Below, in pieces: positions 29,395-33,936 of a DNA stretch of 37,089 nt (position 1 is the stretch's first letter; every line of letters begins with the position of its first letter). Position numbers and translations under genes: made by a program. The DNA is taken from contig QNVF01000009.1 of assembly GCA_004347965.1 (NCBI GenBank), positions 1 to 37,089 on the forward strand. Direction: 5' to 3'. The stretch is from Candidatus Nezhaarchaeota archaeon WYZ-LMO8. Lineage in GTDB: Archaea > Thermoproteota > Methanomethylicia > Nezhaarchaeales > WYZ-LMO8. The notes under the pieces were generated by a model. That model ran no database searches. It was not told where the DNA came from and worked only from the letters and a program-made list of their open reading frames with translations.

Positions 29395-31082
29395 ATGAAG
29401 TATATCTTCATTACGGGGGGTGTTTTATCAAGCGTAGGTAAGGGAGCAGTAACAGCTTCTATAGGCAAGATGCTCCAAGTCAGAGGTTTCTCAGTAACAG
29501 CAATAAAAATAGACCCATAGGCCTTATGGCCGGGTAAACATAAACGTTGATGCTGGAACAATGAACCCATAGGCTCTAGGCATACGCTTAGAGCCGGGCA
29601 TATATGCATGGTGAGGTCTTTGTAACAGAAGATGGTGGTGAGGTAGATCTTGATCTCGGTCATTATGAGCGCTTTCTCGATATAGAACTATCGAGGGACA
29701 ACAACATCACAACTGGTCAAGTGTACATGGCGGTGGTGGAGGCTGAGAGGAAGGGTAAGTACCTTGGCAAGTGTGTACAAATAATACCTCACGTAACTGA
29801 TGAAGTGAAGAGGAGGATACGATCCGTTGCTCAAAGAAGCAATGTAGATGTAACACTTGTGGAGTGTGGAGGTACGACAGGAGACATCGAAGGGCTTCCC
29901 TTCCTTGAAGCTATAAGGCAGATGAGGCTTGAGGAAGGCTTTTCAAACACGCTTTTCGTGCATGTTGCGTTAGTACCAATACTTGAAGTGACTGGAGAGT
30001 TCAAGACAAAGCCCCTTCAACATAGCGTGCAAGAGCTAAGGCGCATCGGTATACAGCCAGACATTATAGTGGCAAGGTGTAAACAGCAGCTTGATGAAGA
30101 TTCAAAAAAGAAGATAGCGCTTTATAGTAACGTCCCCGAGGAAGCGGTTTTCACATCTTACGACGTCGAATGCATATATGAACTGCCAATAGTACTAGAC
30201 GAACAGGGAATGGGCGACTACATATGTAAACGGTTAATGCTAAATGCTTCTAAAGCGAATTGGTCCTCATGGAGAGAGATAGTTAGAAGGCACAAGTTCT
30301 TTAGGTATGAAGTTGATGTCTGCATGTGTGGGAAGTACACAAAGTTAAAGGACTCCTACATAAGCATAATAGAAGCTCTAAAGCATGCAGGAGCTTTCCT
30401 TGAAACAAAGGTCAACATGATTTGGCTCGAAGCTACACAGCTTGAATGCGATAAGGGAATGCCTGAGGAGTATCAGAAGACTCTGAGCTATTGTGATGGC
30501 ATAGTGGTTCTACCAGGTTTCGGTGCACGAGGAGCTCAAGGAAAGATGACCGTCATCGAGTATGCTAGGAAGAACAAGATCCCGTTCTTGGGAATATGCT
30601 TTGGAATGCAATTAGCCGTTGTAGAGTTCGCAAGGAATGTGGTGGGTCTCAAAGATGCAAATACCACTGAGCTTGACCCTTCTACAAACCACCCAGTAGT
30701 AGACCTGCTGCCGGAGCAACACTATGTTAAGGAAATGGGAGGTACGATGAGACTGGGTGCTCAAGCTACTGTTCTTGAACCAGGGACGAAGGTCTATGAG
30801 CTCTATGGAAGACCTATAATATTTGAGAGACATAGACACAGGTATGAAGTAAACCCTGCTTACTGGTCATTGCTTCAGAGCTATGGTATGATTTTCTCAG
30901 GTTATAGCGTTGATAAGCGAAGAGTAGAATTCATAGAGCTCAAGGATCATCCATTTTTCATAGCTACTCAGGCACATCCAGAATTTAAGTCGAGACCTAA
31001 TAGACCGTCGCCTCTATACTACGGCTTCTTAAAGGCTTGTCTAGAGTACAAGCTAAAGAAGTCGATGGCCTCTAATAGCTAA
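29395..31082 (+). CDS. pyrG: CTP synthase, intron-split: join(29395..29518, 29538..29570, 29602..31082), 545 aa after splicing
   Basis: Exon 1 [17 protein letters not shown]...AIKIDP; exon 2 [11 protein letters not shown]; exon 3 [25 protein letters not shown]...GGTTGDIE...KTKP.QHS...GICFGMQ...ERHRHRYE...HPEF. Joined length is 1638 nt. The ORF track sees only 29604..31082. Confidence 0.94.
29519..29537 (+). other. 19-nt BHB-type intron 1 in pyrG mRNA (AGGCCUUAUGGCCGGGUAA)
   Basis: G-ACCC-AU|A-GGCC(UUAU)GGCC-GGGU-AA|A-C: perfect 4-bp helix ACCC/GGGU, two 3-nt bulges, 4-bp GC hairpin. Splicing gives GAC CCA UAC AUA AAC (D-P-Y-I-N). Confidence 0.9.
29571..29601 (+). other. 31-nt BHB-type intron 2 in pyrG mRNA (AGGCUCUAGGCAUACGCUUAGAGCCGGGCAU)
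   Basis: ACCC-AU|A-GGCUCUAGGC(AUAC)GCUUAGAGCC-GGGC-AU|A: 10-bp hairpin, central helix ACCC/GGGC with one A-C mismatch, AUA bulges. Splicing gives AAC CCA UAU AUG CAU (N-P-Y-M-H). Confidence 0.87.
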
Positions 31083-33583
31083 TACGAACCCTTGAGAGAA
31101 GAGTAAGCTCTCTCTATCCTGGTTATAAATCTTCTAGCTGCTTCCTCAGGGTTTGACGATCTTGTTATCGCTGAGCCAACAATTACTATCTTGCAACCTC
31201 TCTTAACTAGTTCATCCACGTGTTCGAGCCTTACACCACCTGCTACGGCTACTGGAACCTTTACGCTGTTCACTATTTCCTCTAAGAGCTCCATTTTCTT
31301 TGTCACATCTCTCTCCCTCATCTGCACACTTATACCCATATGGACGCAAATTATGTCGCATCCAAGTCTCTCTACTTCCTTTGCTCTAGATACGGGGTCC
31401 GGCACATTTATGAGGTCGCACATGATCTTGACGTTGTACTTTCGAGCAGCACCAACAGCGTCCTTGATAGTATAGTCATCAGTGGCGCCTAGCACTGTAA
31501 CTATGTCCGCTCCAGCTTCAGCAGCTAACTCAACTTCAAGCCAGCCAGTGTCAAACGTCTTTAAGTCGGCAACTATAGTAGCGTAGGGAAACCTTCTTCT
31601 AAACTCCCTTACTGCCTCTAAGCCAGCAGACTTTATGAGTGGTGTTCCAACTTCAAGAATCTCAGCTCCTCCTTTGTAGCATGCTTCAGCTATGCTTAGA
31701 CCATCCTTCAAGTATCTTTCATCTATCGCTACTTGAAGCTTAGGTCCTTTGTAAAGTGGTTCTAAGCCTAATTGCTGAAGTTTCTTGTCCATAGGTATTC
31801 CATTATAGTTCCAGCCTCTAATCATGTAGTAAGCGTCGAGCAGCCTCGTTAAATCAACTATTTCTCCTTTTGCAGCTCCTTCCTTCAATCCCTCGCTTAA
31901 GAACCTAGGAGGTAGAGTGTCGTGTGATCTATTGAACCCCTCCCTAACGTTAAACAGCCTTTCTAAGTTGTATATTCTCTCTCCTATCTTATAGAACTCT
32001 TCTTCATCAACGTAGAAACCTGTCGCCGTTGTTAATAGCCTTGCGTAATGCGTTGCCTCATAGGCTAATGTCGAGAATAAGGCGAGCATGGTGTACTTGC
32101 ACACCACTAAAGAGTCTATTACAGCTGAGACATCTTGCAATCTCTTAACGAGCTCGGCTTTACCTTCATAGGAGAGGGGGTCTATGTACCTTGGTATGCC
32201 CAGTATCTCACTCATCACTATGTAAGCTCTCAAGTGGCATCCCCCTCTATTGGATGTTGCGTAAGCCAAGGCCATGCCCTTTGCCCCTCGAGGATCGTAA
32301 GCCGGCAGCTCCAATCCTTTCACGTGAGCAGCTATACCCTCAGCACCTATCATCTTCGCTATTCGATCAACTCCCTCACTTGCAATTCTTCCTAGACCCC
32401 TCTTGCAGGCTGTGTCAACGATAAGCTTTAACAGTACGTCAGCATTACCAAAGCTTAGCTTTAAATTTACATCGCCAAGCCCTCTTAAAAGCCCCTTCTC
32501 ATAGCACTCCATTAAGAATCCTATAGTGTTTCCAATTGATATGGTGTCGAGACCTAGCTTGTTGCATAAGTCATTTGCTCGTGCTATGACGTTTATATCT
32601 GATATACCACAGTTAGGTCCCAAGGCCCATACGCTTTCATACTCAGGCCCTGAAGATACTACTTCCTCCTCTCCAACCTTGTATTTTATTGAGCGAGCGC
32701 AAGCTATCGGACATCCATAGCATGCGGTTCTTCTTACCAGCATGGTTTCAGTAATTCTCTCCCCACAAACCTCCTCTGCTTTATCGAAGAAACCTCGTGT
32801 AAAGTTATAGGATGGAAGAACTCCTGCCTTATTCATCAAGTGAACCAGAAACGCTGTGCCATAGCGTCCAAGGCTATCTCCAGTAATTGGGTTCCCTCTT
32901 AAGACCTCAAGTGTCTTCTTAACCTCTTCATTGAATGCTCTCGGGTTTGCAACCTTCACTTCACCGGTGCCCTTGACTGCTATGGCCTTTAACTTTTTAG
33001 AGCCCATGACTGCGCCCAAGCCGCCTCTACCAGCTGCTCTATGCTTATTGCTTATTATGCAAGCCATTCTAACCTGGTTCTCTCCAGCAGGACCTATGCA
33101 ACACACCTCGACCTTCTCAAGCCCCAACTCTCTTCTTATAGCATCCTCTGTAGCATCGGTTTCAAGTCCCCATATCTTGCTTGCATCTCGAATCTCAGCT
33201 TTACCGTCGTCGACCACCAAGTATACTGGGCTAGAGCTTCTACCTCTGATGATTATGCCGTCAAACCCAGCCTTCTTCAGTTCAGGTCCCCAGGATCCTC
33301 CACAGTTAGAGTCGAAGATCGTGTTAGTCAATGGAGACTTCGATGACACAACGAATCTACCTGATGCTGGAGCTCTAGTCCCTGTGAGCGGGCCGGTCAT
33401 AAATATTAGCACGTTATCCTCGCTCAGTGGATCAATACCCGGCTTTAAAGCGTCAAAGAGAAGCTTTGCTGAATACCCTCTACCGCCTATAAACTTCATT
33501 GCTACGTTCCAGTCGAGATCTACGACCGCTACGTCGCCTTTACTCAAGTCTACCTCTAGTATCCTGCCACTGTAACCACTCAA
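31079..33583 (-). CDS. Fusion: W/Mo aldehyde:ferredoxin oxidoreductase (aa ~1-613) + 3-hexulose-6-phosphate synthase-like TIM barrel (aa ~614-834)
   Basis: AOR motifs [70 protein letters not shown]. Then [51 protein letters not shown] (HPS/KGPDC family). Confidence 0.9.
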
Positions 33584-33630: not shown

Positions 33631-33936
33631 TTGAGGGTTTCTATCGTGAGGGTGAAAGTAGAGGTTTACGGGTCTCTGAGGAATGTGGTAGGCTGGAAGA
33701 GTGTGGAGATGGAGCTGAGCGAGGACTTTACGCTGGGACAACTACTTGATCTTCTTGTGGAGCAGAAGCCTGAGCTTAAGGAATTGATCTTTGAGGGCGA
33801 AAATTTAAGGGATTACTTAAAGGTGTTTGTAGATGGAAGAGATTGTAGGCTTTTAGGTGGTTTAAAAGCGAAACTTAAGGATGGCTCAACGATATCGATA
33901 TTTCCTCCAGCTGGTGGAGGCCTATTTGAAGCTTAG
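33631..33936 (+). CDS. MoaD/ThiS/SAMP ubiquitin-like sulfur carrier
   Basis: Beta-grasp pattern ending LKDG..ISIFPPAGGG-LFEA; divergent from the AOR gene. GTG at 33646 is a likely start. Confidence 0.9.
   Translation: MRVSIVRVKVEVYGSLRNVVGWKSVEMELSEDFTLGQLLDLLVEQKPELKELIFEGENLRDYLKVFVDGRDCRLLGGLKAKLKDGSTISIFPPAGGGLFEA

Follow-up and report, generated by a model that had tools for sequence, protein, structure and literature searches.

A single gene in the archaeon "Candidatus Nezhaarchaeota archaeon WYZ-LMO8" encodes an aldehyde:ferredoxin oxidoreductase (AOR) joined to an HPS (3-hexulose-6-phosphate synthase). The gene lies within a window of 37,089 nt, the whole stretch of DNA that was analyzed (contig QNVF01000009.1, assembly GCA_004347965.1; positions below are those of the window). 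We consider it fairly probable, at roughly 60%, that this AOR-HPS protein makes pentose by the reverse ribulose monophosphate (RuMP) pathway and oxidizes the released formaldehyde in situ to formate, with reduction of ferredoxin. In the proposed mechanism, a separate 6-phospho-3-hexuloisomerase (PHI) would convert fructose-6-phosphate to 3-hexulose-6-phosphate, which the C-terminal HPS barrel would cleave to ribulose-5-phosphate and formaldehyde. The N-terminal tungsten-type AOR would then oxidize formaldehyde to formate and pass two electrons via its [4Fe-4S] cluster to ferredoxin. Overall, ribulose-5-phosphate, formate, and 2 reduced ferredoxins would arise from fructose-6-phosphate, making the reaction a ferredoxin-linked counterpart of the oxidative branch of the pentose phosphate pathway. 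Removal of the formaldehyde would both spare the cell from poisoning and pull the cleavage forward. Domain architecture, intact catalytic residues in both halves, conservation, genomic context, and phyletic pattern are observed; what the AOR module acts on, which way the flux runs, and whether formaldehyde is channeled are inferred. The features concerned are as follows.

31079..33583, minus strand: the whole AOR-HPS gene, a single open reading frame of 834 codons plus stop, with a TTG start.
31751..33583, minus strand: AOR module, residues 1-611 (AFOR_N, 6-206; AFOR_C, 221-607).
32699..32722, minus strand: three presumed [4Fe-4S] cysteines, Cys288-x2-Cys291-x3-Cys295, aligned with the Cys motif of 1aor (the fourth is Cys495).
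32060..32077, minus strand: six-residue insertion F503-Y508 directly following Cys495, which marks the fused clade.
31742..31750, minus strand: junction K612-G613-P614, between the last AOR-aligned and the first HPS-aligned residue.
31082..31741, minus strand: HPS module, a barrel of the orotidine 5'-monophosphate decarboxylase (OMPDC) suprafamily, residues 615-834.

The open reading frame list contains this frame unbroken at 834 aa, as an earlier sequence-only reading of the same DNA had reported. The completeness that it claimed for both enzymes is borne out by three full-length Pfam domains: AFOR_N (residues 6-206; 1.7e-83, 279.7 bits, profile 1-199 of 199), AFOR_C (residues 221-607; 3.2e-144, 481.2 bits, profile 3-385 of 385), and OMPdecase/HUMPS (residues 614-819; 2.6e-34). 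It had also placed the beginning of the barrel near 31744, which is where residue 614 falls. The linker is very short, as proposed, but not of the nine residues given for it. Residue 611 pairs with the final residue (605) of the Pyrococcus furiosus AOR (1aor), and residue 615 pairs with residue 2 of the HPS of M. gastri (3ajx); since the first alignment ends at 611 and the second begins at 615, about three residues (K-G-P) separate the two enzymes. Of 30 short fused forms that were aligned, 24 have an identical spacing. The start is right, because residue 2 pairs with residue 2 of 1aor and the nearest relative (833 aa, 94% identical, 100% query coverage) spans the whole protein. An AlphaFold2 model built from an alignment of 91 sequences has a pLDDT of 94.2 and a pTM of 0.93, with a pLDDT of 94-95 across the junction (residues 601-620). 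No chain spanning both halves was found among the solved structures compared. A scan for bacterial-type promoters and terminators, which is ill-suited to an archaeon, gave nothing above shuffled sequences. Overall, both halves of the protein are complete and look catalytically intact.

The junction is crossed with 0 differences by contigs assembled from three DNA runs, each belonging to a different study (X9, 31079-32675; X10, 31527-32505; X14, 31515-31879), and the same single frame is present in closed or near-closed genomes of relatives. AOR and OMPdecase domains occur together in at least 108 protein clusters (108 among the best 120 listed), whose source names include Nezhaarchaeales, Methanomethylicaceae, Thermoprotei, Thermoplasmata, Promethearchaeota, Hodarchaeota, Heimdallarchaeota, and Thorarchaeota. 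These contigs, the single frames in closed genomes, and the number of fused clusters already refute an assembly or gene-calling artefact that merged two adjacent genes, and no stop interrupts the junction in the frame itself, in the study contigs, or in the genes of relatives. Among the matches listed for 401 sampled genomes of the phylum, both halves are spanned by one match in at least 48 genomes, a count taken from 150 listed matches with 465 weaker ones beyond them. Within the class, 40 of 62 genomes have AOR-HPS, counted as an HPS match inside a frame of at least 795 aa. They include one (G230) in which the fused frame is cut by a contig end; in another, beyond the 40 (G302), the AOR and HPS halves sit at contig ends. 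Relatives are thus mostly fused, and of the refuting conditions in the sequence-only reading that can be checked by computation (a stop at the junction, always separate genes in relatives, a barrel that groups outside HPS), none was borne out. The full fusion is also present in species-representative metagenome-assembled genomes (MAGs) named Methanosuratincola, Methanomethylicota, Hecatellales, Bathyarchaeia, and Hodarchaeota, and a MAG labeled "Nanohalarchaeota" has the long form of the fusion described below. In-frame TGA codons in the matches of G008 and G350 were considered as possible interruptions and rejected, as they lie outside the gene; both genes are single frames, of 910 and 929 aa. 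In a metatranscriptome run (X13), contigs of a 90-99% alike strain cover parts of both halves. The junction is not cleanly spanned by any of them, and RNA libraries may contain DNA; they are not counted as evidence of expression. Database labels for the fused protein are inconsistent, naming it AOR, HPS, or OMP decarboxylase.

Compared with solved chains, the AOR half scores 566.7 bits against 9mqx_D, 557.9 against 1aor_A, and 524 against 9g7j, versus 362.7 against the formaldehyde:ferredoxin oxidoreductase (FOR) 1b25 and 244 against WOR5; the GAPOR_Arch model gives 46 bits for a cut-off of 1300. Identity is 45-46% to the structures of AOR sensu stricto and 36% to 1b25, and target-normalized TM-scores of the predicted model are 0.97 to 9mqx, 1aor, and 9g7j and 0.92 to 1b25. 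By its scores against solved structures, the oxidoreductase half is therefore AOR sensu stricto-like and not FOR-like. The sequence-only reading had assigned it to the AOR family, which stands, and had left its place among the AOR, FOR, and WOR clades to be settled; an FOR-like module is not what was found (558 versus 363 bits), and a separate FOR-type gene is present elsewhere in the genome. That gene (G000:C44:6245-7390; locus L009:826-2700) is one of five further AOR paralogues, all unfused, and scores 580 bits against the P. furiosus FOR 1b25. Three of the five were compared with solved structures, and the other two of these three are distant AOR-like proteins.

The residues expected of a working AOR are retained. 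All 91 fused proteins aligned share C288, C291, C295, C495, E316, and H450; the alignment consists of the window protein and 90 of the other 107 two-domain clusters (partial sequences and forms of ~990 aa were left out). E316 and H450 pair with E313 and H448 of 1aor, and Y315 pairs with Y312 and is kept in at least 90%. The four cysteines are presumably the [4Fe-4S] ligands and the Glu and His active-site residues, as in AOR structures. A tungstopterin cofactor and aldehyde oxidation are predicted for the AOR module, with indirect evidence from the conserved MoaD-type neighbor described below. Oxidation of formaldehyde by enzymes of the AOR type has precedents: the AOR of Thermoanaerobacter X514 has a Km of about 93 uM and a Vmax of 25 U/mg (Table 2 of PMC10816221), and that of A. 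aromaticum has an activity of 4.1 U/mg (Table 3 of PMC6365974). In these portions of the two papers, formaldehyde is not the best substrate of either enzyme.

The barrel scores 210.6 bits against TIGR03128 (RuMP_HxlA), or 214.7 in the genome search, where the cut-off is 200. Models for 3-keto-L-gulonate-6-phosphate decarboxylase (KGPDC) give 68-90 bits for cut-offs of 250-294, and the OMPDC model falls far under its own cut-off. Among solved HPS chains, the barrel reaches 211 bits with the HPS/PHI chain 9lj9 and 124 bits with 3ajx, versus 58-67 bits with KGPDC chains. Five residues, E644, D673, K675, D678, and H748, pair with E33, D62, K64, D67, and H136 of KGPDC and are invariant in all 91 fused proteins. 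They are presumably the metal-binding Glu and Asp, the Lys, the Asp given in trans, and the His of the OMPDC suprafamily. At KGPDC positions 112, 139, and 169, the barrel has Asp, Ile, and Ala, and a KGPDC variant that is E112D/R139V/T169A according to its entry titles outscores the wild type against the barrel (66.6 versus 60.9 bits). Among unfused proteins, those most similar to the barrel are stand-alone HPS (at 66-72% identity), followed by HPS-RraA-like proteins (52-56%) and the HPS-PHI of Thermococcales (about 52-54%), and the HPS-domain tree places the barrel among these same three types. Models, solved chains, and tree thus answer the question raised earlier of HPS versus KGPDC in favor of HPS: the barrel is by sequence a genuine HPS, not a KGPDC or OMPDC, with HPS activity predicted.

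The two halves appear to have a common history. Trees were inferred for 30 short fused proteins (that of the window and 29 others chosen for spread) and all 5 long forms, within 51 rows for the AOR domain (quick search, LG+G4) and 84 rows for the HPS domain (quick search). In the AOR tree, the 35 fused proteins together make up a single clade (SH-aLRT 89, not starred), the sister of which consists of 11 unfused Bathyarchaeia-type AORs; the window genome's own paralogues fall outside. In the HPS tree, 27 of the 30 short forms and 5 of the 5 long forms belong to one starred clade (97), which also includes two unfused tandem-HPS proteins and five stand-alone HPS, and the subclades of the fused HPS clade match those of the AOR tree. 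Of the AOR modules examined, 35 of 35 fused ones have the six-residue insertion that follows the fourth cluster cysteine, versus 0 of 11 unfused sister AORs, and this insertion corresponds to a 6-residue gap in both 1aor and 9mqx; K435, F503, T505, and E509 are likewise specific to the clade of fused AORs. On these comparisons, the two halves have evolved as a unit. The HPS modules of P0106, P0108, and P0109 lie outside the main fused clade, beside Fae-HPS, with a long-branch warning. A second, independent fusion was considered for these three and set aside as unsupported, because their AOR modules lie inside the single fused clade and share its six-residue insertion.

Several variants of the architecture were also observed. 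The long form, of ~990 aa (P0058, P0060, P0063, P0072, and P0093; locus L107:443-3418), has an extra, truncated HPS-like module of ~170 aa sited exactly at the junction, in which the Asp-x-Lys-x-x-Asp motif is kept and the N-terminal Gln-Val-Ala-x-Asp motif is absent. D678, invariant in the 91 short forms, is no longer so once long forms are included, and the pattern at this residue together with the extra module fits an intramolecular pseudo-dimer. Two unfused proteins of 393-395 aa (P0130 and P0132) consist of a degenerate HPS in tandem with an HPS, and the HPS tree groups them with the long fused forms. Another (P0241, 968 aa) has three HPS-like stretches and a SIS domain. P0123, a stand-alone HPS of 234 aa, is 68% identical to the fused domain and nested in the clade of fused HPS, and its genome, perhaps the one with locus L045, may contain a fused gene as well as this split-off or duplicated HPS.

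The gene content of the window genome (1.35 Mb, 93% complete) is consistent with a role of the fusion in pentose synthesis. No HPS other than the fused gene scores above the cut-off, and the PHI is a separate gene on another contig. At this completeness, neither Transketolase_N nor transaldolase was found, and no other pentose route was found in this genome or in its order. A stand-alone gene for the formaldehyde-activating enzyme (Fae) is present as well, so that the search for phi and fae elsewhere in the genome, suggested by the sequence-only reading, finds both. Possible sinks for formate include two PurP-like genes and a gene for an FdhA-like molybdopterin protein near ferredoxin-like and HdrA-like genes. 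Across the class, PHI is found in 57 of 62 genomes, including 35 of the 35 high-quality ones. The fused HPS is the sole HPS in the closed genomes G008 and G016 and in four of five more distant carriers, for which there are no completeness figures; no Fae was found in any of these five.

The distribution of Fae and of its own HPS fusion provides a further line of evidence. Fae divides the class sharply: the stand-alone enzyme is present in 8 of the 10 genomes of the window's family, whereas Fae of any kind was found in 0 of 32 genomes of group f4 and 0 of 4 of group f2. Fae-HPS occurs in 0 of the 40 class genomes with AOR-HPS versus 8 of the 22 without it (G158; G266, G320, G374, G398, and G402; G338 and G380). 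Thus, AOR-HPS and Fae-HPS are mutually exclusive in the class. This complementary distribution supports the earlier suggestion that AOR-HPS is a functional analogue of Fae-HPS. The fusion is not, however, simply a replacement for a missing Fae, because the window genome has the stand-alone enzyme.

Several observations weigh against the proposed role. The stand-alone Fae and the unfused FOR-type paralogue of the window genome are both other possible sinks for formaldehyde. The complementary pattern reflects a few clades of related genomes and not independent events. Transketolase_N is found in 19 of the 32 f4 genomes, mostly in carriers of the fusion, and the supply of pentose therefore need not depend on AOR-HPS everywhere. 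Of the 22 class genomes without the fusion, 13 have neither Fae-HPS nor AOR-HPS, and HPS can therefore work without a fused partner. Finally, several Nezhaarchaeales relatives (G151, G254, G362, G356, G368, G179, G242, G248, G088, and G120) encode a second HPS in a frame of 432-455 aa, an HPS-RraA-like form (431-438 aa) whose C terminus, in annotated cases, is an RraA-like domain (PF03737); the window genome, G186, G224, and G302 gave no match of this kind.

A stronger version of the proposal would be an oxidative RuMP shunt with substrate channeling, which we regard as a tentative extension and as rather doubtful. Here, formaldehyde would stay in the protein, and the zero-length junction and the clade-specific insertion next to the [4Fe-4S] cluster would shape the route from one active site to the other. 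With PHI, the enzyme would turn fructose-6-phosphate into ribulose-5-phosphate, formate, and two low-potential electrons, with formate feeding PurP-type enzymes. If this is true, then in archaea without Fae or tetrahydromethanopterin (H4MPT), purine nucleotides would owe both their ribose and their one-carbon units to a single enzyme.

Three other explanations compete with in situ oxidation of the formaldehyde released by HPS. The protein might be a general node of formaldehyde detoxification, in which HPS fixes formaldehyde and AOR oxidizes the excess, whatever its source, so that fusion provides only colocalization and a fixed stoichiometry. RuMP is widely read as a detoxification route (as stated in sections of PMC8065059), and AORs are proposed as formaldehyde oxidizers in passages of genome papers (PMC11291895, PMC9723716, and PMC8065059). 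Under this explanation, however, both activities would compete for one substrate, so that the retention of a rigid fusion across phyla would have no obvious purpose, and the fused HPS is the sole HPS in genomes without other pentose routes. We consider such a node unlikely.

Flux in the opposite direction, in which the AOR module would reduce formate with low-potential ferredoxin and the fused HPS would condense the resulting formaldehyde with ribulose-5-phosphate, seems improbable. Condensation is the favorable direction of HPS, and it would pull the otherwise unfavorable reduction and feed one-carbon units into sugar phosphates. The benefit of a zero-length fusion would be greatest for a scarce intermediate, and the many f4 carriers with transketolase may not need the cleavage direction. 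On the other hand, formate reduction requires a very low potential, the pattern that mirrors Fae-HPS fits formaldehyde disposal, and the cleavage direction seems to be needed in the window genome and its order because no other pentose route was found there. In favor of the opposite direction, AORs themselves are described, in the relevant passages of PMC9295118, as reversible and able to reduce non-activated acids with low-potential donors.

We likewise give little credence to the absence of any coupling, with the AOR acting on other aldehydes, such as those of amino acid fermentation, and the fusion being neutral or a regulatory accident. The module is of the AOR type, the characterized relatives of which prefer C2 and larger aldehydes in the data tables of PMC6365974 and PMC10816221, and a separate FOR-type paralogue exists. 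However, a neutral fusion is difficult to reconcile with its retention in at least 108 clusters from several archaeal phyla (by source names), with the codivergence of the two halves, the clade-specific insertion, and the near-fixed spacing, or with the mutual exclusion of AOR-HPS and Fae-HPS.

The surroundings of the fused gene include a likely partner in cofactor synthesis.

33631..33936, plus strand: ThiS/MoaD-family ubiquitin-like protein, divergent from the fused gene (Pfam ThiS, 6.6e-13).

This gene lies 47 bp upstream of the fused gene and is kept beside it in 11 of 11 loci of relatives, down to 38% identity, with a Gly-Gly end in 9 of the 11. There are three ThiS-like genes in the genome, and this is the only one that adjoins an AOR. 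It is likely a sulfur carrier for synthesis of the tungsten cofactor. A similar arrangement is described in Thermococcus kodakarensis, in passages of PMC11323500, where the gene for a MoaD-type ubiquitin-like protein (tk1065) lies beside that for an AOR (tk1066) and the ubiquitin-like proteins serve tungsten-cofactor synthesis. The window's MoaD/ThiS-like protein extends five residues past the Gly-Gly and that of one relative (L017) extends three; the extension may mark a precursor that has to be processed at its C terminus, or the stop codon may have been lost recently. The other neighbors of the fused gene are housekeeping genes: pyrG, which is convergent, and those for TiaS, TFE, and Trm56.

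In pyrG itself (CTP synthase; 29395-31082, plus strand), there are two inserts near the 5' end, of 19 nt (about 29520-29538) and 31 nt (about 29572-29602), both immediately preceded by one and the same short motif, which lies at a Pro-Tyr codon pair. Removal of both restores exactly the 53 codons absent from the Pfam match. Both inserts are at the same sites in six of six family relatives in which the gene start was found (that of L117 was not found). Their lengths differ among relatives by non-multiples of three, their stems show compensatory changes, and the exon peptides are conserved though in different frames. The layout, with a 4-bp helix, two 3-nt bulges, and an inner hairpin, fits the bulge-helix-bulge (BHB) motif; folding alone is weak (z of -1.5 and -2.1). 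The genome has two genes for splicing-endonuclease subunits. These inserts are candidate BHB introns in a protein-coding gene, for which cbf5 is a known precedent (in a part of PMC2738675). A search of the full-text literature aimed at BHB introns in connection with CTP synthase, with supplements outside it, found no paper.

With respect to the literature, archaea that use the reverse RuMP pathway release one toxic formaldehyde per pentose, and the fate of this formaldehyde outside the Fae/H4MPT route is only guessed at in the passages of genome papers that treat it (PMC9723716 and PMC8065059). Oxidation of RuMP formaldehyde by separate AORs has been proposed in parts of PMC9723716, PMC8065059, and PMC11291895. 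Only the fusion itself is thus undescribed, and formaldehyde oxidation by a separate AOR is already in print. No description of an AOR-HPS fusion was found in the full-text literature (supplements were outside the search, as were most subscription journals), in agreement with the earlier impression that the architecture is uncharacterized. The fusion supplies a concrete candidate enzyme for the formaldehyde step and makes the question directly testable. By source names, its carriers include Nezhaarchaeales, Methanomethylicia (including Methanosuratincola), Bathyarchaeia, Thermoplasmata, and Asgard lineages. If the proposed role is true, AOR-HPS represents a third type of HPS fusion and a new physiological role for an AOR-type tungstoenzyme, in which reduced ferredoxin is gained from a sugar phosphate.

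The two known HPS fusions cited by the sequence-only reading, HPS-PHI and Fae-HPS, both have NCBIfam models, and AOR-HPS differs from each. Fae-HPS (NF009833; methanogens and relatives) is alike in that HPS is joined to an enzyme that consumes formaldehyde, and it is found in the same archaeal class, in genomes without AOR-HPS. Its partner is an N-terminal Fae, which combines formaldehyde with H4MPT without redox chemistry, whereas the partner in the window protein is a tungsten-type oxidoreductase of 611 residues. The Fae domain PF08714 has no match in the fused protein, and NF009833 reaches 160 bits (cut-off 274) over the HPS part only. AOR-HPS is thus not a member of the Fae-HPS family and is possibly its functional analogue. 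HPS-PHI of Thermococcales (NF041755; 9lj9) belongs to the same reverse RuMP pathway and, as noted above, has a closely related HPS domain, but there the partner is the preceding enzyme, an isomerase with a SIS domain. In AOR-HPS, the partner would act on the by-product and PHI is separate; the fused protein has no match to the SIS domain and scores 208 bits against NF041755 (cut-off 500).

The N-terminal half can also be compared with solved oxidoreductases. AOR sensu stricto (1aor, 9mqx, and 9g7j) has the same fold and the same Cys, Glu, and His residues, and a MoaD-type neighbor as in T. kodakarensis; to this plan the window protein adds a C-terminal HPS barrel, the 6-residue insertion, and the clade-specific K435 and E509. 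The FOR of P. furiosus (1b25) is of the same family and fold, and the reaction proposed for AOR-HPS is the one from which FOR takes its name. AOR-HPS nevertheless scores only 363 bits against it, and the true FOR-type gene of the genome is unfused.

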